Sequence record: MT496969.1
Strand: one strand, 5' to 3'
From: Escherichia phage Mt1B1_P3
DNA: 40,313 nucleotides
Shown: piece by piece, positions 1 to 40,313 of the stretch
Layout of the letters: the number at the start of each line of letters is the position of its first letter
Position numbering within the stretch: the stretch's first letter is position 1
Notes under the pieces: generated by a model
The model's database searches: none
What the model was told of the DNA's origin: nothing
The model's input: the letters and a program-made list of their open reading frames with translations, nothing else
Translations under genes and position numbers: made by a program

Positions 1-202
1 AGAGACTCAAAGAAGACCTATAGCCTCTACCTATCGTCCTTCCATAAGCCATAGCCTAGACCTATCGTTGACCTGAAGTCCTGACCATCGGTCCAACCTT
101 ATGACAGACTGGCTGTGACTGCAAGGAGTAGTAACGGGTAGGGCCTTTGGTCTGGACTTAAAGAGGGCCTATGGGGAGACTTGAGGTTCTTGAACTGTGA
201 GA
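1..202. repeat. Left direct terminal repeat (DTR)
   Basis: Bases 1-202 recur at 40112-40313; the window ends inside the repeat, so DTR is at least 202 bp. Typical of T7-like linear genomes. Confidence 0.85.
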
Positions 203-3107: not shown

Positions 3108-3165
3108 AGTTGCCCTCCCGGTTTATCAGATTTCACGTAGAGTCGCCTCCACTAGTTAGTGTTAA

Positions 3166-3205
3166 CCATAAAGGCCACTACATATAGTAATGACCTTGAG
3201 TCTAA
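3166..3205 (-). promoter_or_regulatory. Putative RNase III processing hairpin (R18.5-like)
   Basis: Conserved element ATAAAGGCCAC-N10-ATGACCTTGAGTCTA also at 26682-26719 and 33882-33921; imperfect stem AAGGUCA/UGGCCUU in minus RNA; located between genes 18 and 18.5 as in T7. Confidence 0.45.
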
Positions 3206-3777: not shown

Positions 3778-6700
3778 TTACTTCTGTTCAAGAGCAGAAA
3801 GTCTGGCTTCGATTCTTTCCAGTTTTCTTCTCTGATAAGCGGCTTCAGCAAAGAAAATTCCGTCAGGCCGAACACCCCACTCCTCACCCTCTTCATGGAT
3901 AACCACCTCAGTGAATACAGGCTCTTCCGTAGTAGTGACATTACCCTCCTCGTCAGTGTGTTCAATGATTTCATTGTGCGAAAATACCGTATCGGTCATC
4001 CGTGGATACTTGTCATAGCACAGAACGGCATAACGACAATTCGTACTGTTTTCATCCATCAGACCGTGTGCAATGAATACATCACGAATTTGCTGAGCAA
4101 TAACCCCGAAGTGAATACGAGCATCATTGCCTTTCAGTTGAACAGCATCTAACCATTGATACATGATGTAGTGAACGTCACCCCAGGCATCTAGGAAAGC
4201 ATCATCAAAAACTACCGGCTCTGTTTTCTTCTCCCCATTAGAAGTAACAATAGGGTTGCTTCCGAGATATGCAGTTGTGAAACGGTTACTTGGTCCACCA
4301 AGCGCAATGACGTTATCGTTATAAGGCTTAACGTCAGCAGTCTGGAACAGATGCTCATCACCATTGTAAACTATTCGCCTTGAGTCTGTGTTATTTGCAC
4401 CATAAAGCGTAATCTGTGCGCCAGTCGTTGAACTGGTGCCTTCACCTCCGCAAAATATGGTGCGCTGCCCTGCCGGGTTATCAGTCGGTATAGACTTCCC
4501 GATAAACCCATATTCACCTTCCATTAAAACTTCAGAGCGAATGTTACTACTGGTGCTGGCTCTAAGGGTCACATGACCTAAACCCAAATCCCCTGTAAAT
4601 TCCATTGGTGCAGGAACAGTGCGAATCCCATTCGTATCAAAAAACACGGGAACAGCTCTGTTAGGTACAGCACCATACCTGAAATCACGGGAAACATGAT
4701 TGCTTGGGCCAATCTTCATTTTGTAGCAATACAAATCTGAGGGATGACCATCCGCTTTGAATGGGTCCTTCGCTGAGTTATCTCCATAGGTCCATGGGTT
4801 AAAATGGTCCTCTCCACCAAACATGTAGTAGATGTAATTATCCTTCACAACTACCGAACCAACACCTACACCTGAGTTAACTATTCCGCCCTGATAAATC
4901 TGGTCAGTGATGTTAACCCATTCAATATCATCTGCATTCCAATTGTTTACATTCAATCGTGCATAGAAGGTGCGAGGATAAGATGCCTTGTAACGATCAT
5001 CTGGTGCACCTGCTTCCCATTCATTTTCTGCACGTTCTGAACCAAACATAATAAGGTCATCCCCTACTTTAGCAAAAGGTAATGTAGTATGATGAACATT
5101 ATGTGGAAATCTCAGTGACTCCCAAGTCTGACCTATGTCTCTACTACGATGCAAAGAGCTACCTAGCCTATCCCCACGAGTGCCACGAGTGATAAGGTAT
5201 AATACACCGTCATAGTACTTTATGCACGGCTCTGACGCATCTGGTTCATACTCAGATGGTATCTGACGGCGAACATAACTAGATGGGCTATTGAAAGCGT
5301 CAGGGAAGTAGAAAAGCCCAACTTCGCGTGGAGCTACATCGCCTTGATGATAACCCATAACAAAGCCATTGTTATCAATAGTAGCAAAGCTATGCACCTC
5401 TGTGACACGAGGGATTAGACCAAGGTCTGTCTTACGCCATGGAGACTTATGGAAAGACGTACCCATGTGCCAATTCTTTCCAGCGTTATTCAAATCTGAA
5501 GTCTGCTGGTTGGGTGTAAGAACCGTGAAGTTGTCCTTATCTATTACGGTTGCAACAGTCATATCACCGGATACACCTGTTACCGCAGAATTAGAGAAGT
5601 TAACAAAATCACCCACGAATAGTCCGTGGTCTGGTACATGTATTGTTGCATATTGCTGATTTGCAGCTTTAGTGATACCACCAGTAAGATGCAGGCTACG
5701 AGACATGGGGCGATCCCATAATGCACAATTGGTTAATGCGTTCTTGGCTAAAGTACGTGTTTCAATCATGGCAAACAGACGGTTGCGACATACACCCATA
5801 CTCATACAGTGATAGTTCACTGTAGGGTAATCTGGATGCAGATCAGTTAGCCACTCTGGAGTAGACCATGTTTGACCATCATCACCAGACTTAACCCATG
5901 ATACATGCAGACGACTAACACCATGACGATCGCTACCCATGTAAGGTGCATATATCACATTATCATATACGAACGCTTTATCCTGAGGCCACGCATTGTA
6001 ATAAGGGGTGTCCGTTATTTTGAACAACTCACCCTGAACAAATTCCTCAGAGGCATAATAAAGAGGTTGTCCGGGAATGCGCTCATAAACGAAACGAGTG
6101 TTGATGAAGCGACTAATGTCAGGTAGGGATGTGACCTTATATGTCTTCCCATTGCCATTAATCTTTTGTCCAACCGGTATGTCGTTTAATGCGCTCGTTA
6201 ACGCTGCTGTATCATCAGTGACGCCATCACCTTTAGCACCCCAACCACGAACATCTTTTTCATCAAGCCAGCGTGCTCTATGTAATTCAGGGTAGAGTAT
6301 TGCCCCTTCAGGATTTGAAATCTGACTTCTTAAAGCAGCATCACCAACACTAACCCACGCACCTAATCCAATCCCACCGGAAGTTTCAGGAGTTGAACCA
6401 GCAGGAACGTTCTTTGGAAGCGTACCATCCCAGCGGTAATAATCACCATCCTCTTCCCATAGCAGGACCTCGCTCCATGTTGTAACGTTGTAGCCTTTCT
6501 CGAAGGAGCGACGGGTAATATAGCCAAGTCTACCAGCTTCCCTGATACTCTCAGCGATTCGTCGTGCTTCGTCCTCGCTATCCTTAGCGTTGCCAGCAGA
6601 GCTACTAGCAGCATCGGCATATTCCTTCGCTAAGTCAACCGTTTGGTCTCGACCTTCTTCTGCAATATGGATAGCCTGAAGCTCTGAATTAGTCAGGTCA

Positions 6701-6972
6701 CTAGCTGTCAACACTGAGCCATTCCTGAAGTCTACCACTAAGTCAGTTCCAGTCTGACGGTGAATACGAACGATGTCGAAACCTGATTGGTCAACCAACA
6801 TCTCAATCATCGTTGGATTAAGGAATCGGTAATCTCGACCAACTTCCAGTACACGGTTTAGGGTAGGGTTAGAGCTATTCACCAGCGTAACAACAATAAA
6901 CGTTCTGGCTAGGTAGTCGAACTCAATCCTGTACTGAGTGTTTCCTGAAGGGAATTGTGTAATCGTGGACAT
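3778..6972 (-). CDS. 17: Tailspike endosialidase (endo-N-acetylneuraminidase) with T7 gp17-like N-terminal adaptor and C-terminal intramolecular chaperone domain
   Basis: 1064 aa. N-terminus (FDYLARTFIVVTLV...DYRF...LVDFRNGSVLTASDL...IHIAEEGRD) aligns to T7 tail fiber N-domain; two Asp-box motifs SGDDGQTW and SRDIGQTW (sialidase beta-propeller); C-terminal GNDARIHFGVIAQQIRDV...AVLCYDKY resembles autocleaving chaperone domain of K1F endoNF. AGGAGG-CATA-ATG start. Confidence 0.93.
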   Translation of the reverse strand: MSTITQFPSGNTQYRIEFDYLARTFIVVTLVNSSNPTLNRVLEVGRDYRFLNPTMIEMLVDQSGFDIVRIHRQTGTDLVVDFRNGSVLTASDLTNSELQAIHIAEEGRDQTVDLAKEYADAASSSAGNAKDSEDEARRIAESIREAGRLGYITRRSFEKGYNVTTWSEVLLWEEDGDYYRWDGTLPKNVPAGSTPETSGGIGLGAWVSVGDAALRSQISNPEGAILYPELHRARWLDEKDVRGWGAKGDGVTDDTAALTSALNDIPVGQKINGNGKTYKVTSLPDISRFINTRFVYERIPGQPLYYASEEFVQGELFKITDTPYYNAWPQDKAFVYDNVIYAPYMGSDRHGVSRLHVSWVKSGDDGQTWSTPEWLTDLHPDYPTVNYHCMSMGVCRNRLFAMIETRTLAKNALTNCALWDRPMSRSLHLTGGITKAANQQYATIHVPDHGLFVGDFVNFSNSAVTGVSGDMTVATVIDKDNFTVLTPNQQTSDLNNAGKNWHMGTSFHKSPWRKTDLGLIPRVTEVHSFATIDNNGFVMGYHQGDVAPREVGLFYFPDAFNSPSSYVRRQIPSEYEPDASEPCIKYYDGVLYLITRGTRGDRLGSSLHRSRDIGQTWESLRFPHNVHHTTLPFAKVGDDLIMFGSERAENEWEAGAPDDRYKASYPRTFYARLNVNNWNADDIEWVNITDQIYQGGIVNSGVGVGSVVVKDNYIYYMFGGEDHFNPWTYGDNSAKDPFKADGHPSDLYCYKMKIGPSNHVSRDFRYGAVPNRAVPVFFDTNGIRTVPAPMEFTGDLGLGHVTLRASTSSNIRSEVLMEGEYGFIGKSIPTDNPAGQRTIFCGGEGTSSTTGAQITLYGANNTDSRRIVYNGDEHLFQTADVKPYNDNVIALGGPSNRFTTAYLGSNPIVTSNGEKKTEPVVFDDAFLDAWGDVHYIMYQWLDAVQLKGNDARIHFGVIAQQIRDVFIAHGLMDENSTNCRYAVLCYDKYPRMTDTVFSHNEIIEHTDEEGNVTTTEEPVFTEVVIHEEGEEWGVRPDGIFFAEAAYQRRKLERIEARLSALEQK

Positions 6973-13222: not shown

Positions 13223-13810
13223 TTAGCTATGACCTGTAGGTGTGCCTTTAGCAGCACTAATTGGTGCAGCACCACCAGAGCTGGACGCTCCAGAGATTGC
13301 CTTACCAGCGGCGTAACCTTGCATCCCGGCGTTAGCAACATTAAGTGCATGAGCCAGTGGGCTGGTCTTGATGATTTTACCTTGACCACGGATAGCAGAC
13401 TTGGTGTTCTCAATGTTGGCGATACGGTTCCCGAAGATAGCCGCATAGTCGCGGTTGTAACTTTCGGTAATCCCTGCTCGCTCCTTGACTGTATCTCCTG
13501 CGACCTGACGTTCAATCCTGTCCATAGAGTTACCTTCCAGACCGGACTCAGCTACCGCAGCTCTGACCATACCCTGATTGCGGATACCGTTGAGCGTGGT
13601 CTCTGTCAGTTCAGCCATCTGCTGCTCCTTCAGGTCTCGCTCCTGCATCTTCAGGTTGGCGTCAGAGTAGTTCATCTGCTTAACCATTTCCTGAGACTGT
13701 CGGTTCTGAGCGTCAATTGCTGCACCTTCAGCCTTGGCCTGTTGGGATGCGGACATAGTGGCGCCAGCTACAGACATGATACCTAGACCGATACTTACTG
13801 GCTCGCACAT
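13223..13810 (-). CDS. 14: Internal virion protein B (gp14)
   Basis: 195 aa vs T7 gp14 196 aa; position; AGGAGG RBS. Confidence 0.85.
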   Translation of the reverse strand: MCEPVSIGLGIMSVAGATMSASQQAKAEGAAIDAQNRQSQEMVKQMNYSDANLKMQERDLKEQQMAELTETTLNGIRNQGMVRAAVAESGLEGNSMDRIERQVAGDTVKERAGITESYNRDYAAIFGNRIANIENTKSAIRGQGKIIKTSPLAHALNVANAGMQGYAAGKAISGASSSGGAAPISAAKGTPTGHS

Positions 13811-14265
13811 ACGTCCTCCTTAGAGATAGTGAATAGTTGAAAACGCTCACCAGTTACTGGGCTTACAGTCCAATCATCATGGAATTTAGCCCCAAGCAAC
13901 TTCAAGAATTTAATGTGAGACTTATTGCCTGACCACACGTAGTTCCAGATGGTCCCGTATTGGTCTAACATTAAGTCCCTGTACTCAGAGATACGCTTTA
14001 TGAACTCCCGCTTCTCTTTAGGTCTCAGCTTATAGACAAGACCAGAAGTCAAGAACCATACGTTATCCCCTTGGTTTCCACCATAAGCAAACACTTCGCC
14101 TACACCGTTCGTTAAAACCACAGATGATGGAGATAGGTGCTTAAGCAGTCTTTCAGAGAGACCAACGGTTGACCCATAGTTTGCTTTGCACTCATTAACA
14201 TCATCTGCTGAAAGATGCCACAGAAAGTAGTGGACATCTGGTTCCGTAGCCTTGCGAATATACAT
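13795..14265 (-). CDS. 13: Internal virion protein A (gp13)
   Basis: 156 aa; position downstream of phi13 promoter; GGAG RBS. Confidence 0.75.
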   Translation of the reverse strand: MYIRKATEPDVHYFLWHLSADDVNECKANYGSTVGLSERLLKHLSPSSVVLTNGVGEVFAYGGNQGDNVWFLTSGLVYKLRPKEKREFIKRISEYRDLMLDQYGTIWNYVWSGNKSHIKFLKLLGAKFHDDWTVSPVTGERFQLFTISKEDVCASQ

Positions 14266-14294
14266 AAAGTCTCCTTATAACCTTAAGGGCCTAT

Positions 14295-14317
14295 AGTCCC
14301 TATAGTGATAGTTAAGG
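14295..14317 (-). promoter_or_regulatory. Phage RNAP promoter phi13, TSS about 14300
   Basis: Minus strand CCTTAACTATCACTATAGGGACT; embedded between 12-bp perfect inverted repeats (14285-14296 / 14323-14334). Confidence 0.65.
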
Positions 14318-14341
14318 TAAATCTATAGGCCCTTCAATAAG

Positions 14342-16699
14342 TTAGACGGAACGAGCTTTCTTAGCGTATGACGCCTCCCAGCCACATCCAACGATTGACA
14401 CTGGGGTAGGATAGTCGGACTCTAAGGTTAGACTCGTGGTTAATGCGTTACCATTCATAGCGAAGCGATACTGCCCGTCACCAATGTTAGTAGTCCCTAT
14501 GGTCTGCTGACCAAGTGTGTACCCATTAAAGGTGTTAACGAACTCTCGCTCACCGTTTCTGACAATGAGTCTCAGAGCGCCAGTGTCCTTGTAGTTGACC
14601 CAAGCCCGACGAAGCTGTAGACGACCAGTGTCTTCAGACTGAGTGCCACTATCATCTTCAATCTTAATCAGGAACCGTGAGAACTTGTAGGACATCAGAT
14701 AGGGCCGCCCGATGAACACTGTACGTCCTGACCAATCGCCGTTGAGGGTAATCACAGTAGAGATACTGGTCAAGTCCCCAAGGTCCAAATAAGCACCCTG
14801 ACTGTCAATCAGATAGTACCGACCGGGAGACGGAGCATTACCACCATAAGCAGCACCAATGTCAACCGTAGTCTTATATGTGTCAGCATTAAACGAGCCA
14901 ATTGGGATGACCATAGACACCTTGGAGTCAACGTGGAGTCTATACGGCTCTGATGGAAAGTCAGTTGCCTCCTTGATGAACTTAAGGTGCTCAAGGTCCA
15001 CGCCGCCTTGGTGCTGACGAACAATGAACATGGTAGAGCCAATCGACGCAGACGCCAGAATCTTATCAGCTTTAGGGAACTCCCAGTGAGACCAAGAGGC
15101 TTGAAGCTGTACGCCGTCCTTAAACAAGAACTTGTAGAGGTAGATTCGGTTGTATGCACCTGTAGAGTTGACGCAGATGTAGTTCTCAGTCCCTGTTCCC
15201 TGAATGTCAAACACCCCGTTAGGGATATAGGATAGTACGTGACCAGTGGTATCATCGGCATCCTTCACGTCAGACACATCTGCTACAGCGAAGTATCGCT
15301 TAATGCTGGTGAATGACCCACGAGGCGCTGAGAAGAAGACTGAGCGTCCTACAGCGAACGGTCTGGCATTATCTCCTAAGGCAAACTCTGAGCCTACATC
15401 AAGCTGGATAGACTTCGAGGTAAGGACCCCTGAGCTTGTCATCACGAACTGCACTTCATCTGACCAAAGTAGTAGCTGCTCGCTAAACGGAACGGCATAC
15501 TTAAGGATTGAGATTCTAGGGTGACTTACAGCTACATCAATAGGGTCATCATCACTCAGTGTCGCCACACTCTTAGGGAAGAACGCAAAGTAGCTTGCTG
15601 AACGGCTCATGATTACGTTCTCGCCTGACAAGAACCCTAGCCTGTTCCTGTAGAAGAACACATCGTTAATCGTAGCATCCACGAAGCTAGGCATAGGGCT
15701 TGTGTCATCATTACCAGCACCACGCTTAGACCAGTCCAGAGCCTTGAACTCAAAGGAGCCATCAGATTGTCGTACCAGAGCGTGTGGCATTGTGGTGTTA
15801 TCGAACCCAGTGACAACTCCCGGCTCCACTGTCTCCTTCCACGTCTTAGTGTTGGAGTCATACATCACGTAGTATTCATCGGCGCTACTGTTTGTCTCAC
15901 CTTGAATCTTAATGATATACCCATTAGGAGCGGCAAGAGGTAGTTTAGAGATTGTCTGCACAGTGTCTAGGACTGGGCTTATTAGCTGGTTAGCGTAGCC
16001 ATCCTCCGTCTCCACTGAGTTAATATCGGTCCCTGAAGGAGCTGTGATTAGCAGGAATCCAGACCCAAGGTCAAACGTGAAGGTAGGGTAGGCAGTAACA
16101 AGAAGGTCTCTCAGAGCTGCACCAATGGCTTGAGCGTCCACCTTAGGCGGGTCATTCTCGGCATCATTACCTGCTGGTAGCTTATGCGAGACCTTAACGC
16201 CACCGTTGATTCCCACCTTAAGGGTTCGACCATACTGTCCACCACGTAGGTTAATTAAAGCTCGTGCTTTGCGGTTATAACCAGAGTGTGACTTCTCGCT
16301 TCCACCTTTGACGACAACCTTACGGTTAACGACGAACGTATAGTCTGCCACGGTAACGACACGGATGTCATCTCGTGGGTTGGAGGACTTAACGTAGTCT
16401 ACCGAACCTGACACTGCGTATTGATTACCACTCAAGTCAACTACCTGAATGTTTGACCCATTGAACACGATGTAATACTGCTCCTGCTCATCACGGTTAA
16501 TCAGGTGGAACTTAGGGTTGCTTCCAACGTCGATGTTAAGACGTCGCTTGAAGACTGTAGGTGGGCGCTTCTGGAGGCCATCACTCTCGGATGACCAGCA
16601 GTTAACTTGTGCTTCGCCTTGGTCTGAGAACCTCAGTATGTCTGGCTGCTGGCTAATACCACCTTTAAGGTTCTTGATTGATTGAGTAATTAGTGGCAT
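14342..16699 (-). CDS. 12: Tail tubular protein B (gp12)
   Basis: 785 aa vs T7 gp12 794 aa; AAGGAGGG RBS. Confidence 0.93.
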   Translation of the reverse strand: MPLITQSIKNLKGGISQQPDILRFSDQGEAQVNCWSSESDGLQKRPPTVFKRRLNIDVGSNPKFHLINRDEQEQYYIVFNGSNIQVVDLSGNQYAVSGSVDYVKSSNPRDDIRVVTVADYTFVVNRKVVVKGGSEKSHSGYNRKARALINLRGGQYGRTLKVGINGGVKVSHKLPAGNDAENDPPKVDAQAIGAALRDLLVTAYPTFTFDLGSGFLLITAPSGTDINSVETEDGYANQLISPVLDTVQTISKLPLAAPNGYIIKIQGETNSSADEYYVMYDSNTKTWKETVEPGVVTGFDNTTMPHALVRQSDGSFEFKALDWSKRGAGNDDTSPMPSFVDATINDVFFYRNRLGFLSGENVIMSRSASYFAFFPKSVATLSDDDPIDVAVSHPRISILKYAVPFSEQLLLWSDEVQFVMTSSGVLTSKSIQLDVGSEFALGDNARPFAVGRSVFFSAPRGSFTSIKRYFAVADVSDVKDADDTTGHVLSYIPNGVFDIQGTGTENYICVNSTGAYNRIYLYKFLFKDGVQLQASWSHWEFPKADKILASASIGSTMFIVRQHQGGVDLEHLKFIKEATDFPSEPYRLHVDSKVSMVIPIGSFNADTYKTTVDIGAAYGGNAPSPGRYYLIDSQGAYLDLGDLTSISTVITLNGDWSGRTVFIGRPYLMSYKFSRFLIKIEDDSGTQSEDTGRLQLRRAWVNYKDTGALRLIVRNGEREFVNTFNGYTLGQQTIGTTNIGDGQYRFAMNGNALTTSLTLESDYPTPVSIVGCGWEASYAKKARSV

Positions 16700-16936: not shown

Positions 16937-17502
16937 TAGTCCCTCCCGATGTCAGACATCATGTTGTAGCGACCAGTGTCCATCTCGTACTCCATAACCT
17001 GCTGATAGAGTTCTGCTTCCTGCTCACGAAGGTATAGCTCTGACTCTGGGCTACCGAAGAACTTAGCGTTGAACTCACGGCTAGCTTTAGTGACGATGTA
17101 GTCCCTGAAGACCACAGGCATCTCGGAGAATGGCTTCATCTCCACAAGCTCTACCGTGATGGGGTCGGTGAAAGTGGTTGACTGAGTGGATAGGTCGTAC
17201 AGGTATCCACCCATGTTGCTGTAGTAGCTGGTGGCCCCAGCGGTCATTACGCGAAGGTATGACGGCAAGAATCGAATCCTATTGTCTTGGACATCAGGTG
17301 TCAGGACAGCAGCTTCATTGATATTAAAGTTCCAGCCTTTAGCTTGGACCTGACGATTGACACGATGCAGGATACGTTGAGCGTTCGAGACGTCAGCGTT
17401 CCCCTCGTCAAGCTGTAGGACTGCTGGTTCACCGATAGCAGCTAACATATCGTTGATGGCGTCTAAGTCATCGTTAGCATTCAGTGGAATGTATTGAGCC
17501 AT
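16936..17502 (-). CDS. 11: Tail tubular protein A (gp11)
   Basis: 188 aa; aligns with T7 gp11 (DAINDMLAAIGEP..., NAQRILHRVNRQVQAKGWNFN). Confidence 0.93.
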   Translation of the reverse strand: MAQYIPLNANDDLDAINDMLAAIGEPAVLQLDEGNADVSNAQRILHRVNRQVQAKGWNFNINEAAVLTPDVQDNRIRFLPSYLRVMTAGATSYYSNMGGYLYDLSTQSTTFTDPITVELVEMKPFSEMPVVFRDYIVTKASREFNAKFFGSPESELYLREQEAELYQQVMEYEMDTGRYNMMSDIGRD

Positions 17503-17618
17503 AGGTTTACTCCTTAACGGTCATAGGCGCTAGACGGTGAGCTGGACAGCAGGTACGCCCAGAATAAGACGAATAGTGCTAACCCTGTGTAAATAAGGAC
17601 CATAGTACCTCCTTAAGC

Positions 17619-17654
17619 AAAAAACCCCTCAAGCACCCGAAGGCACCCAAGGGG
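17619..17654 (-). terminator. Tphi-like terminator downstream of the capsid gene
   Basis: Minus RNA CCCCUUGGGUGCCUUCGGGUGCUUGAGGGG followed by UUUUUU; near-identical architecture to T7 Tphi (AACCCCTTGGGGCCTCTAAACGGGTCTTGAGGGGTTTTTTG). Confidence 0.8.
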
Positions 17655-17660
17655 TTTCAA

Positions 17661-22717: not shown

Positions 22718-22778
22718 CTTGAATCTCCTCTTTAAGTTAAGACTAAAGTCTATCTTATAGTCATATCTTAGGTCCTAA

Positions 22779-22801: not shown

Positions 22802-22927
22802 GTTTCACCTATGGATGACTGTGGGATTAATAGGATATGACTATCGGTTAGACTCAGTGTTTAGGGCGGTTGTTCGACCCGAACCACTTGTACATGCAGT
22901 AAAGGGCCAGAAGTCCTGCCCAGTAGA

Positions 22928-24487: not shown

Positions 24488-26658
24488 TAGTGACACTCCT
24501 TCCACGTTGGTCCAATCTTACCTTCGGTATCAAGGACACATTTAAAGTTATAGAACTCACCCACCTTACGCATAGCAAGTTGAGCAATCTTGACGACTTC
24601 TTCGGCAATCTCCTGAGTACGACACGCAATCTGTAGCTCATCGTGAACCCAAGCCATGTACGCAAAGTCACCTTCCCAGCCGTGAACATACCCGGCATCT
24701 TCGAGCATACGTTCAGTCTCGACAATCCAGTGCTTACAGACTACCGCACCATCGCCTTGAAGTAAGGCGTTAAGTGCTGAGTGTGGAGACCGGATGTGGA
24801 TACGCCGACCATCAAGTCCACGCAACCAACGGCGTTTCCACTTGACGATGTTCTCTCCGTCCACCCACTTAGAGTCTGAGATTAACGTATCACTCACAGC
24901 TTCCCTGAGGTCCTTGATGGCTGGTGTGCCCTCAATGAATTTCTTCATGAGAGCTGAACCTTCCTTCTTACCACCGCCAACTATCAGTCCAATCTTCGCG
25001 GCCCCTGCACCATACAGGAACGCATAGATGAACGTCTTAGCGTTATTACGGAAAGCATCATGGTCGTGGCTCGACTTGTCGCGTGGGACGTTAGGTGCTA
25101 ACCCAGCGTTTACTGCGTTGGCCCAGTGTATGTCCCCTTCGACCACAGTCTTCGCATAGTCTCCACCATCAAACGGAGCCGCTCGGTTCCCTAGACAACG
25201 AAGCTCAAGACCTGAAGCATCCACGCCTACTTGAATCCAAGGGTCTGGCTTACCATCCGTCTTGTTCCAAGCTGCACCGAAAGCACCACGGCAAGTCTCA
25301 CCGTATGGAGCACCGTTAGCCGGGACTTGAGCCATGTTTGGTGAACTGTGAGTCGCACGTCCGGTTACTGCCCCGCATGGGTTTATTGAACCGTGCATAC
25401 GTCCGTCTGGACCTACAAGTTTCAACCATGCGTTCTTACCTTCAGCAGCCTGACCGATGCGCTTCTGGACTACCAGATACTCACGGACCAGCTCTACGCA
25501 AGCCTGAGCCTCTTCGTCTGGCAACTTAACGTGTTCTAACGTCTCGTCATCGACCACAGGTTTCCCGGTGTCAGTGAAGTCCACAGGCTCCCAGCCACGC
25601 TCCATCAGAACTTTCGCTAAGTGGTCCCCGCTTCCCGGATTGAACTCAACGTAAGTGATAGGTGTGAATGGTGCTCCCTCCATCGTGTCTCGCGTATCGC
25701 GTTCACAAGGTTCAAGACCTAAGCGTTGAGCTTTGTTCTTCGGCTTCTTAAAGATGCCACCGACCTTAGGATACACGACTCTCGGATACTTCGGAAGGTC
25801 CTTGCCTGTACGTGGGTGCTTGAAGAACTCCTTTCCGCCCTTTGGTGCGTACCAGCTACCGAAAGTCGAACGCAGCTTGTCCAGCAACTCTGCACGTTTG
25901 ACGGTGAGTTCACGATATAAGCCTTCGACCATCTCGGTGTTCATCGGATAGCCGTTACGCTCCATCTTCGCACAGGTCCACGCAGCATCGTGTTCCAGAC
26001 GCAACGCATAAATCTGGTCGAAAGCGAACTGTTCAGACTGGAAGTAATACTTGTCAGTCAGGAACTTCTTGAACAACGCCAGTGTGACCACAACGTCTTG
26101 AACGTTATAGTCCAGCATCTCCTGAGACGGGAACAACCATTCGTCCCCAGCCTTATATTCGATACCTTCAGCCTTGCATTTGGCAACGTAATCGTGTTTG
26201 TACTCACCCTTCATCTCACCGAGACGATAGCCCCAAGCCTCAAGAGACTGACGTCCCATCATACTAGGTGGCAGACGACCAGATTTCACTGCGCCCATGT
26301 CTGAGAACTTAATGTTTGGATACATCAAGCGGCCCAGCACCAAGGTATCAATCATCTTGTGTTTCGGGAAGTTAAAGCGTTTCCCAAAGTACAGACGTTT
26401 CAGCTTGTCTATAGCAGGGACGTCATAGTTGATACCGTTATGGAATACCAGCATACCATCAGGTGATGCGGCAATCTCTTCCACTTTATGAACATACTCT
26501 TTGAAGCCACCGACGATACCGACCATCGGAGCTACCCCATACTTAAGGGTCTCATTCGACTCGGCGTTAATCAGGACCCCACAGTGAAACTGGGAGACTG
26601 TATCAAGGAGACCGTTGGTCTCGATGTCAGAACCCCAGATACTCTTAAGGTCAAACAT
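24487..26658 (-). CDS. 5: DNA polymerase gp5
   Basis: Collinear with T7 DNAP (DIETNGLL, FHNGxxYDVPA, GKPxPKYPR, GDFAYMAWVHDE, LDTEGKxGP). Start placed at ATG 26658 (MFDL...) with GGAGG RBS; track start 26694 is an upstream GTG. Confidence 0.96.
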   Translation of the reverse strand: MFDLKSIWGSDIETNGLLDTVSQFHCGVLINAESNETLKYGVAPMVGIVGGFKEYVHKVEEIAASPDGMLVFHNGINYDVPAIDKLKRLYFGKRFNFPKHKMIDTLVLGRLMYPNIKFSDMGAVKSGRLPPSMMGRQSLEAWGYRLGEMKGEYKHDYVAKCKAEGIEYKAGDEWLFPSQEMLDYNVQDVVVTLALFKKFLTDKYYFQSEQFAFDQIYALRLEHDAAWTCAKMERNGYPMNTEMVEGLYRELTVKRAELLDKLRSTFGSWYAPKGGKEFFKHPRTGKDLPKYPRVVYPKVGGIFKKPKNKAQRLGLEPCERDTRDTMEGAPFTPITYVEFNPGSGDHLAKVLMERGWEPVDFTDTGKPVVDDETLEHVKLPDEEAQACVELVREYLVVQKRIGQAAEGKNAWLKLVGPDGRMHGSINPCGAVTGRATHSSPNMAQVPANGAPYGETCRGAFGAAWNKTDGKPDPWIQVGVDASGLELRCLGNRAAPFDGGDYAKTVVEGDIHWANAVNAGLAPNVPRDKSSHDHDAFRNNAKTFIYAFLYGAGAAKIGLIVGGGKKEGSALMKKFIEGTPAIKDLREAVSDTLISDSKWVDGENIVKWKRRWLRGLDGRRIHIRSPHSALNALLQGDGAVVCKHWIVETERMLEDAGYVHGWEGDFAYMAWVHDELQIACRTQEIAEEVVKIAQLAMRKVGEFYNFKCVLDTEGKIGPTWKECH

Positions 26659-26721: not shown

Positions 26722-28601
<1,880 letters not shown>

Positions 28602-28648
28602 TCACTCCTTAATCACAAATGCGAACAAAGGGACAGGACTAATTGTCC

Positions 28649-28671
28649 CATCCCTAAGGTGATAGTTTAGG
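28649..28671 (-). promoter_or_regulatory. Variant phage promoter upstream of gene 4, followed by 5' hairpin
   Basis: Minus strand CCTAAACTATCACCTTAGGGATG (two changes at -4/-3 vs consensus); transcript would begin with GGGACA-N8-UGUCCC hairpin (plus 28630-28649). Confidence 0.5.
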
Positions 28672-33845: not shown

Positions 33846-33881
33846 GTGGTTAAATCTCCAGTAGTGTTTATTTAAGGTTAA

Positions 33882-33921
33882 TCATGAAGGCCACGACTTT
33901 GAGTCATGACCTTGAGTCTAA
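33882..33921 (-). promoter_or_regulatory. Putative RNase III processing hairpin (R1.1-like)
   Basis: Third copy of ATGAAGGCCAC-N11-ATGACCTTGAGTCTA element, in the leader of the phi1.1 transcript. Confidence 0.45.
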
Positions 33922-37727: not shown

Positions 37728-37835
37728 AGTGATTTCCGTTTAATACAGTCGTATATCCCCCAAGCTATCAGAAAGATGACCGGAGATAAGCATACCAAAT
37801 GTCCAACACTCATAGTTAACCTCTATCAATTTAAG

Positions 37836-37888
37836 TGGTAATCTTTGAGGCCACCTATCAGTCGATGACCTCTCGTCTATCACTCAGC
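37836..37888 (-). promoter_or_regulatory. Putative RNase III processing hairpin (early region)
   Basis: AAGTGGTAATC...GAGGCCACC...GATGACCTCTCGTCTATCACTCAG; same family as elements at 38270, 39066, 39386. Confidence 0.45.
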
Positions 37889-38269: not shown

Positions 38270-38328
38270 TATCAAGTGGTAATCACTCAGGCCACCATGT
38301 AGATGACCTGTAGTTTAACACTCAGTAC
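38270..38328 (-). promoter_or_regulatory. Putative RNase III processing hairpin (early region)
   Basis: Minus RNA can pair CAGGUCAU with GUGGCCUG (8 bp incl. G-U) around a 7-nt loop, flanked by imperfect lower stem. Confidence 0.45.
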
Positions 38329-39065: not shown

Positions 39066-39124
39066 GTTGTTAGTGACTATCAGTCAGGCCGCTATAAGTC
39101 TAACGACCTGTAGTTAATCACTCT
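39066..39124 (-). promoter_or_regulatory. Putative RNase III processing hairpin (R0.5-like)
   Basis: GTTAGTGACTATCAGTCAGGCCGC-loop-ACGACCTGTAGTTAATCACT; imperfect long hairpin between first early ORF and ocr. Confidence 0.45.
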
Positions 39125-39385: not shown

Positions 39386-39449
39386 GTTAGTGACTATCAG
39401 TCAGGGCCTTCAGATGTAGACTCAAAGGCCCTGTAGTTAGTCGCTATCT
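39386..39449 (-). promoter_or_regulatory. Putative RNase III processing hairpin (R0.3-like) in early leader
   Basis: Perfect 8-bp inverted repeat AGGGCCTT (39403-39410) / AAGGCCCT (39425-39432) with 14-nt loop, flanked by imperfectly complementary arms. Confidence 0.5.
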
Positions 39450-40111: not shown

Positions 40112-40313
40112 AGAGACTCAAAGAAGACCTATAGCCTCTACCTATCGTCCTTCCATAAGCCATAGCCTAGACCTATCGTTGACCTGAAGTCCTGACCATC
40201 GGTCCAACCTTATGACAGACTGGCTGTGACTGCAAGGAGTAGTAACGGGTAGGGCCTTTGGTCTGGACTTAAAGAGGGCCTATGGGGAGACTTGAGGTTC
40301 TTGAACTGTGAGA
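40112..40313. repeat. Right direct terminal repeat (DTR)
   Basis: Identical to bases 1-202. Confidence 0.85.

Follow-up and report, generated by a model that had tools for sequence, protein, structure and literature searches.

Ten RNase III sites, R13 among them, have been reported in bacteriophage T7, in which cleavage sites that accompany a promoter are described as common (PMC6938266). In the RefSeq record of phage T3 (NC_003298), a stem_loop labelled 'RNase III recognition site R13' occupies positions 25443-25480, and the element 'T3 promoter phi13' (25457-25479) is nested within it; the same record places an R6.5 stem_loop (17135-17206) around promoter phi6.5 (17160-17182). No RNase III sites are listed in the feature tables of the T7 records that were checked. 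Dunn and Studier, in 1983, are said to have placed the R13 cut of T7 at 27281, 7 nt past the phi13 start at 27274. Both for T3 (at R13 and R6.5) and for T7, the nesting of a promoter within an RNase III hairpin has been described before. Substrates of E. coli RNase III contain approximately two helical turns of double-stranded RNA, often arranged as two stems around an internal loop, and are free of inhibitory base pairs (antideterminants) in the proximal and distal boxes, which are placed with reference to the cut.

The DNA analysed here, that of Escherichia phage Mt1B1_P3 (MT496969.1; 40,313 nt, referred to below in its entirety as the window), is a complete K1F-like genome of approximately 40.3 kb, assigned to Kayfunavirus. 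Over the 1.2 kb that was compared, it is 100% identical to Kayfunavirus MT1B1P3 and approximately 97% identical to K1F. The sequence is presented in reverse orientation, with all of the genes and phage promoters on the minus strand. A direct terminal repeat of approximately 200 bp is present, window positions 1-200 being duplicated at 40112-40313, which indicates that the window represents the complete linear genome, read in reverse. The non-coding spacer between genes 12 and 13 is 76 nt in length (14266-14341) and contains the whole of the hairpin that is the subject of this analysis. Neither promoters nor RNase III sites are annotated at this place in the K1F records that were checked; in the record of phage ASO2B (MZ726794, 98.8% identical), a promoter alone is annotated at the homologous place, as one of the K1F consensus.

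A repeat search identified two arms in the spacer, 14285-14296 (AAGGGCCTATAG) and 14323-14334 (CTATAGGCCCTT), which are complementary at 12 of 12 positions and lie 26 nt apart. A sequence-only reading of the window, made beforehand without database searches, had proposed a perfect 12-bp inverted repeat at exactly these coordinates, with its arms flanking the phi13 promoter, and both proposals were confirmed. A K1F-type promoter is situated on the minus strand between the arms, with its +1 at 14300; relative to that base the arms occupy positions -34 to -23 and +5 to +16, and the whole promoter is thereby flanked. Since the inverted repeat is perfect, it reads the same on both strands. Read on the coding strand, the spacer element is AAGGGCCTATAG-ATTTA-CCTTAACTATCACTATA^GGGA-CTATAGGCCCTT. 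The enclosed sequence, CCTTAACTATCACTATAGGGAC, fits the K1F promoter consensus and matches the core ACTATCACTATAGG at 14 of 14 positions. This core is common to approximately 12 sites in the window, all of them on the minus strand (14 matches, as compared with 3.1 expected). The features of the junction are collected in Table 1, together with the other hairpins of the genome that are considered below.

Table 1. Features of the gene 12-13 junction and other RNA elements in the window
Feature	Position	Strand	Comment
Gene 12, tail tubular protein B	16699..14342	minus	Identity from K1F and ASO2B annotations
Gene 12 stop codon	14342..14344	minus	
5' arm of RNA hairpin, AAGGGCCUAUAG	14323..14334	minus	8 nt past gene 12 stop codon
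5' side of asymmetric internal loop, 5 nt, AUUUA	14318..14322	minus	MFE structure; varies among relatives
phi13 promoter for phage RNA polymerase, -17..+6, +1 = 14300	14295..14317	minus	Core match
Upper stem, 5' strand, CCUUA, promoter -17..-13	14313..14317	minus	Predicted, MFE structure
Upper stem, 3' strand, UAGGG, promoter -2..+3	14298..14302	minus	Predicted, MFE structure
3' arm, CUAUAGGCCCUU, +5..+16 of phi13 transcript	14285..14296	minus	Near-duplicate of promoter core CUAUAGGGAC
Shine-Dalgarno AAGGAG of gene 13	14271..14276	minus	Just outside hairpin; ATG 14265-14263
Gene 13, internal virion protein A	14265..13795	minus	Identity from K1F and ASO2B annotations
Tphi-like terminator	17618-17657		With U-run
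R18.5-like hairpin	3159-3202	minus	Before gene 18.5-like ORF
R3.8-like hairpin	28630-28654		
R1.1-like hairpin	33876-33918	minus	Stems nearly identical to T7 R1.1
Early-region hairpin	37834-37885	minus	
Early-region hairpin	38275-38323	minus	
Early-region hairpin	39073-39121	minus	
Early-region hairpin	39390-39444	minus	

Perfect inverted repeats of at least 12 bp, with a loop of at most 60 nt, occur twice in the entire window. When the sequence was shuffled with respect to dinucleotides, the mean number of such repeats was 0.165 per genome, and at least one was present in 10.5% of the shuffles. That one of two such repeats should by chance bracket one of approximately 12 promoters is, as a rough inference, much less likely. 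These figures bear on the view that the repeat is a functionless by-product, generated by local duplication of the palindromic core CTATAGG and persisting through the close kinship of the genomes. Some 12-bp inverted repeat is, after all, found in approximately 10% of shuffled genomes, and the 3' arm nearly repeats the promoter core. Moreover, CTATAG is self-reverse-complementary and is present three times within a stretch of 50 nt at this locus (18 times in the window), so that an inverted repeat would arise here more easily than in random sequence. Such an origin is nevertheless very improbable in view of the comparative data described below: the arms are fixed while the loop, the flanks and the promoter specificity change, down to 63-68% gp13 identity, and other genera keep a hairpin at the junction with compensating changes (no clear hairpin is found in Dickeya W2B).

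The sequence-only reading had also predicted that a transcript reading through from gene 12 would fold into a hairpin enclosing the promoter, and that transcripts started at phi13 would not. Computation supports both predictions. In the MFE structure of the read-through RNA, a 12-bp lower stem is followed by a 5/1-nt internal loop, a 5-bp upper stem (CCUUA/UAGGG) and a 10-nt apical loop. The energy of this fold is -21.5 to -23.4 kcal/mol, and its z value ranges from -2.8 to -3.8 relative to shuffled sequences; values of -4.6 to -7.4 were obtained for the fold of the T7 gene 12-13 junction. The 5' arm, AAGGGCCUAUAG, is confined to transcripts reading through from gene 12. Because the phi13 start lies between the arms, RNA initiated there does not contain the complete hairpin, and in the RNA from +1 to +70, which lacks the 5' arm, nothing comparable to the 12-bp stem is predicted to fold.

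A hairpin of this stability, situated directly past a stop codon, might also terminate or attenuate transcription by the phage or the host RNA polymerase where gene 12 ends. The stem is not followed by a U-run (CCCUUAAGGUUAUAAGG), however, and a terminator scan revealed no terminator-like site at the hairpin, the tail of which is CCCUUAAGGUUAU. A real Tphi-like terminator, complete with U-run, is situated elsewhere in the genome (Table 1). The terminator reading was rejected on the basis of the missing U-run and the negative scan, and is regarded as extremely unlikely. A search of Rfam yielded no matches at the gathering score across the whole window.

When the read-through chain is folded as it grows, the 5' arm is predicted to pair initially with the CUAUAGG of the promoter in a 7-bp helix (-6.6 kcal/mol), which is displaced by the 12-bp helix once +16 has been transcribed. 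On this prediction, the 5' arm would have two mutually exclusive partners, the promoter core (7 bp) and the downstream copy (12 bp). It is conceivable, if very doubtful, that the re-wired element constitutes a co-transcriptional, origin-sensing switch that would make the expression of genes 13-16 depend on the promoter used. Such a switch could govern the occurrence and the position of an RNase III cut, as well as the retention, in the gene 13 mRNA, of the CCCUU segment that is able to pair with the Shine-Dalgarno sequence of that mRNA. The accessibility of the gene 13 Shine-Dalgarno differs little between the read-through and the phi13-initiated RNA, and masking of that sequence by the freed 3' arm in phi13 transcripts is weakly supported (mean P(unpaired) of 0.42 versus 0.56).

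Matches to gp13 are present in 1170 phage records. Conservation of the junction was assessed among K1F-type relatives, for which 44 junctions were taken from IMG/VR, from metagenomes and from records of phages. When the last 88 nt are considered, 25 of the sequences are distinct (24 of the K1F type and that of Citrobacter CR8); over positions -42 to +24, there are 20 distinct K1F-type sequences. A related-locus search with the C-terminus of gp12 added almost no diversity. CR44b and all of the other Kayfunavirus-like genomes sampled have the K1F-type junction. It is apparent that the pairing is retained throughout: 11-17 pairs bridge the promoter in 20 of the 20 distinct K1F-type junctions, including four that have differing promoters (L021, L026, L028 and L045). 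The 9-bp core, GGCCUAUAG/CUAUAGGCC, is nearly invariant, and the 3' arm, CUAUAGGCCCUU, is invariant save in one junction (L072). Around these fixed arms, the loop, both flanks and, in the four junctions just named, even the promoter specificity region vary, and different upper stems are predicted for the relatives with other promoters. The arms are kept in relatives with gp13 identities as low as 63-68%.

Several of the distinct junctions contain changes that affect the pairing itself. In one of them (L006), an A-U pair is changed to G.U and pairing is kept, and in two others (L070 and L072) one pair is broken near the apex. Lineages that have lost pair 10, through a G to U change in the 5' arm, have mostly gained a T on the 3' flanking side (CCCUUUAAG); in these the lower stem is re-registered as UUGAA.U.GGCC / GGCC.C.UUUAA, with one G.U pair. 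The 9-bp core is conserved in the K1F-type family without any true double compensatory substitution. The pattern among these phages is one of conservation with mild structural compensation, and not of strict covariation.

These data are pertinent to the possibility that the constraint acts on DNA, in that the palindrome might bind a protein or form a cruciform that modulates phi13, or might mark a recombination junction. A perfect 12-bp Watson-Crick inverted repeat would be consistent with such a role, as would the near-palindromic nature of AGGGACTATAGGCCCT itself and the fact that the arms hardly vary, though low variation alone cannot separate a constraint on DNA from one on RNA. The G.U pairs of L006 and of the re-registered lower stems, on the other hand, are functional solely in sense-strand RNA, and they favour an RNA structure over a DNA palindrome. 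The homologous hairpins of other genera are likewise rich in G.U pairs, and no precedent is known for a DNA-level element at the promoters of the T7 group. A role at the level of DNA is accordingly considered very unlikely.

In the four K1F-type junctions with differing promoters, the same arms enclose another phi13 specificity region, such as ATTACACCCTCACTATAGGGA or TATTTAACACTCACTATAGGGA. This combination implies exchange or divergence of RNA polymerase/promoter specificity in a Kayfunavirus-like backbone.

The analysis was extended to the gene 12-13 junctions of 12 phages belonging to other genera of the Studiervirinae, namely T7, T3, Klebsiella vB8388, Yersinia fPS-54-ocr, Morganella MP2, Pectobacterium ZXLW2, Klebsiella Henu1, Pantoea SK1, Pseudomonas ALEA, Yersinia AKS, Dickeya W2B and Citrobacter CR8, each of which was folded. 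In all but Dickeya W2B, a segment located upstream forms a clear hairpin by pairing with the core of the promoter (approximately -10 to +7). The z value was -2.9 or lower for 10 of the 12 junctions, ranging from -2.9 to -7.4 over those ten. The junctions of Dickeya W2B (z = -0.4) and CR8 (z = -1.4) were not significant by the shuffle, in the case of CR8 despite a perfect 12-bp stem. No comparable gene 12-13 spacer is present in three distant relatives, Pasteurella Pa7, Aeromonas T7-Ah and Vibrio JSF11.

A run of approximately 15 G residues in T3 (L058; NC_003298, about 25495-25510) and one of approximately 14 in W2B (L046) are situated directly downstream of phi13, before gene 13. Either sequencing artefacts of the homopolymer kind or genuine G-tracts could account for these runs. 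That of W2B disturbs the fold of its junction, for which the z value is given above.

Covariation was evaluated by means of a promoter-anchored table and a swap test; a MAFFT alignment lost the register of the 5' arm and was not used for counting pairs. The table reveals U-A, A-U, G-C and C-G pairs at position -1 in different phages and several pair types at +4 to +7, and G.U pairs are frequent. In the swap test, the mean energy of the cognate combinations of upstream segment and core was -20.8 kcal/mol, as compared with -12.7 kcal/mol for the non-cognate ones, and none of 20,000 permutations was as good. The pairing is also specific to phi13 among the promoters of a given phage. For the 17 promoters of T7, the energy of upstream segment with core is -24.0 kcal/mol at phi13 and -4.3 to -13.3 kcal/mol at the others; for the 14 promoters of T3, the corresponding values are -22.8 kcal/mol and -5.4 to -16.6 kcal/mol. 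On the strength of the cognate pairing in the swap test and of the phi13-specific pairing in T7 and T3, the read-through-specific hairpin over phi13 dates far back in the subfamily and has been under selection.

In the window, the pairing of upstream segment with core at phi13 amounts to -11.7 kcal/mol, which is within the range of the window's other promoters; a 7-bp remnant of this pairing is predicted to form solely as a transient in the nascent RNA. As pairing of the T7 type is not an outlier here, the homology with R13 of T7 and T3 rests on position and logic, and not on identical structure. When upstream and downstream segments were paired instead, phi13 was the strongest of the 11 promoters of the window (-29.2 kcal/mol), and the promoter at the phi6.5 position was second (-26.3 kcal/mol). 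In T7 (L004/L075, 27236-27300), a further partner is available to the upstream arm, UUCUCCCUGUGGU, namely ACUACGGGAGGG at +15 to +26, a segment that includes the gene 13 Shine-Dalgarno GGAGG. This duplex has an energy of -21.5 kcal/mol and would represent a weaker, alternative T7 fold in which the arms flank the promoter in the manner of K1F.

Comparison with the described sites shows which of their properties are shared by the element in the window. As with R13 of T3 and T7, the hairpin is located in the gene 12-13 spacer and is complete solely in read-through RNA, and the phi13 start is inside it, with the result that the 5' arm is missing from phi13 transcripts. The hairpins are also of comparable size, with stems of 8 + 5 bp in T3, 15 + 3 bp in T7 and 12 + 5 bp here. 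The description of the site as R13-like, offered tentatively in the sequence-only reading, is borne out by the annotated R13 of T3 and by the co-varying phi13 hairpins at the same junction, the processing itself being putative. The two differ in their pairing partners. In R13 of T7, T3 and eight further lineages, the 3' arm is the promoter core (-10 to +7), whereas in the window it lies at +5 to +16. Since this 3' arm is a downstream near-copy of the core, the promoter is placed wholly within the loop. Unlike those of T7 and T3, moreover, the phi13 transcripts of the window carry a complete 3' arm, and the arms have no sequence similarity to those of the two phages.

In having two arms around an entire promoter, the element resembles R6.5 of T7 and T3, which is found at a different genome position. 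The motif ACUCAAGG...CCUUUAUGAUU of R1.1, R6.5 and R18.5 is absent from the phi13 arms AAGGGCCUAUAG and CUAUAGGCCCUU. The close relative Citrobacter CR8 (L024; 68% gp13 identity) also has a 12-bp hairpin at the junction; unlike the K1F-type phages, it keeps the T7-type scheme, with GUCCCCUAUGGU pairing with ACUAUAGGGGAC of the promoter, which puts it at the transition from one architecture to the other. R1.1 shares with the element a bipartite stem, an asymmetric internal loop and a location in an intergenic spacer beside a phage promoter. R1.1 differs in being downstream of its promoter, so that all of the transcripts carry it, in its greater total helix length and in having a cut site that has been mapped by experiment.

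The remainder of the genome contains further hairpins of these kinds. The promoter at the phi6.5 position (+1 = 22784) is nested between arms of 24 nt (22747-22770 and 22831-22854; minus strand) that are 83% complementary and 60 nt apart, in agreement with the annotation of phi6.5 within R6.5 in T3 and with the fold of T7. The nested arrangement at phi13 is thus not unique in the genome. The R1.1-like hairpin (Table 1), which follows the first promoter beyond the gene for RNA polymerase, and the R18.5-like hairpin contain the common motif GACUCAAGGUCA...UGGCCUU(C/U)AUG(A/G)UUAAC; they bear a close resemblance to the R1.1 and R18.5 regions of T7 and occupy corresponding genome positions. The four early-region hairpins are of a common design, comprising a lower stem, the segments ACUACAGG(U/G)C...GGCCUGA around an internal loop, and a tail of either GAUAGUCAC or GAUUACCAC; the z value of one of them is -3.8. 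They are probably the early RNase III sites, of the R0.3, R0.5 and R1 series. Given that the genome keeps R1.1-, R3.8-, R6.5- and R18.5-like hairpins as well as those of the early region, R13 would be expected to have been kept also.

The element is considered, with a probability of approximately 0.7, to be the Kayfunavirus R13, that is, a putative RNase III processing site in transcripts reading through from gene 12. It is most likely an expected feature with a slightly rearranged structure, and no new kind of element. According to this proposal, late transcripts from upstream promoters that read through gene 12 would contain both arms and form the bipartite hairpin, which host RNase III would cut, separating the message for genes 11-12 from that for gene 13 onward. 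The former would retain a protective 3' hairpin. Transcripts from phi13, which start within the hairpin (GGGACUAUAGGCCCUU...) and do not contain the 5' arm, would escape RNase III. As phi13 RNA starts inside the hairpin and would be left uncut, the processed and the primary gene 13 mRNAs would have similar 5' ends. Cleavage by RNase III, the position of the cut and any effect on the stability or translation of the mRNA are putative components of this scheme.

An RNA structure might also have been selected without being an RNase III site, serving as a barrier to 3'-exonucleases or causing the phage polymerase to slow or pause before gene 13. The structure is conserved and sits at the end of gene 12, as would be required of it. 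The predicted helix consists of 12 + 5, or 17, pairs interrupted by the 5/1 internal loop, which is comparable to the annotated R13 of T3, and short; among helices acted on by the RNase III of E. coli, one of 12 + 5 bp would rank with the shorter. Processing is, in addition, not essential, since T7 grows in hosts that have no RNase III (PMC6938266). An exonuclease barrier requires a nearby 3' end, however, and there is no terminator at the hairpin; the same position is that of the annotated RNase III site R13 in T3, and other canonical hairpins of the RNase III type are present in the window. An uncleaved structure is for these reasons considered unlikely.

In the literature that could be searched, no link between Kayfunavirus and RNase III and no cleavage data were found, and neither was the Kayfunavirus version of the site, with its swapped pairing partner. 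Phages of the K1F type serve as chassis in therapy and engineering, and the value of the present results lies mainly in annotation and engineering; the phi13 hairpin opens no new biological question. A probable R13, together with the set of R6.5, R1.1, R3.8 and R18.5, has now been placed in a K1F-type genome. In at least 11 lineages of the Studiervirinae, phi13 has remained coupled, with compensating changes, to a hairpin specific to read-through RNA, and the pairing partner can be swapped while the same logic persists. Where payloads are inserted or sequences re-coded around gene 13, both arms should be preserved.

The other perfect 12-bp repeat with a short loop is located at 366-377 and 397-408 (19-nt loop, in the region AAGGTCAGTAGA... 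/ ...TACTGACCTTAG). In plus-strand coordinates, this repeat (366-408) is situated near the right genome end, past the last ORF. A promoter-like sequence, AGTGAACTATCACTGTATGAGTA, with two mismatches to the core, was observed within gene 17 (tailspike, 3778-6972), at 5793-5827 on the minus strand, where it is contained in a strong coding-region hairpin, CCCUACAGUGAACUAUCACUGUAUGAGUAUGGG, with a z value of -3.8.
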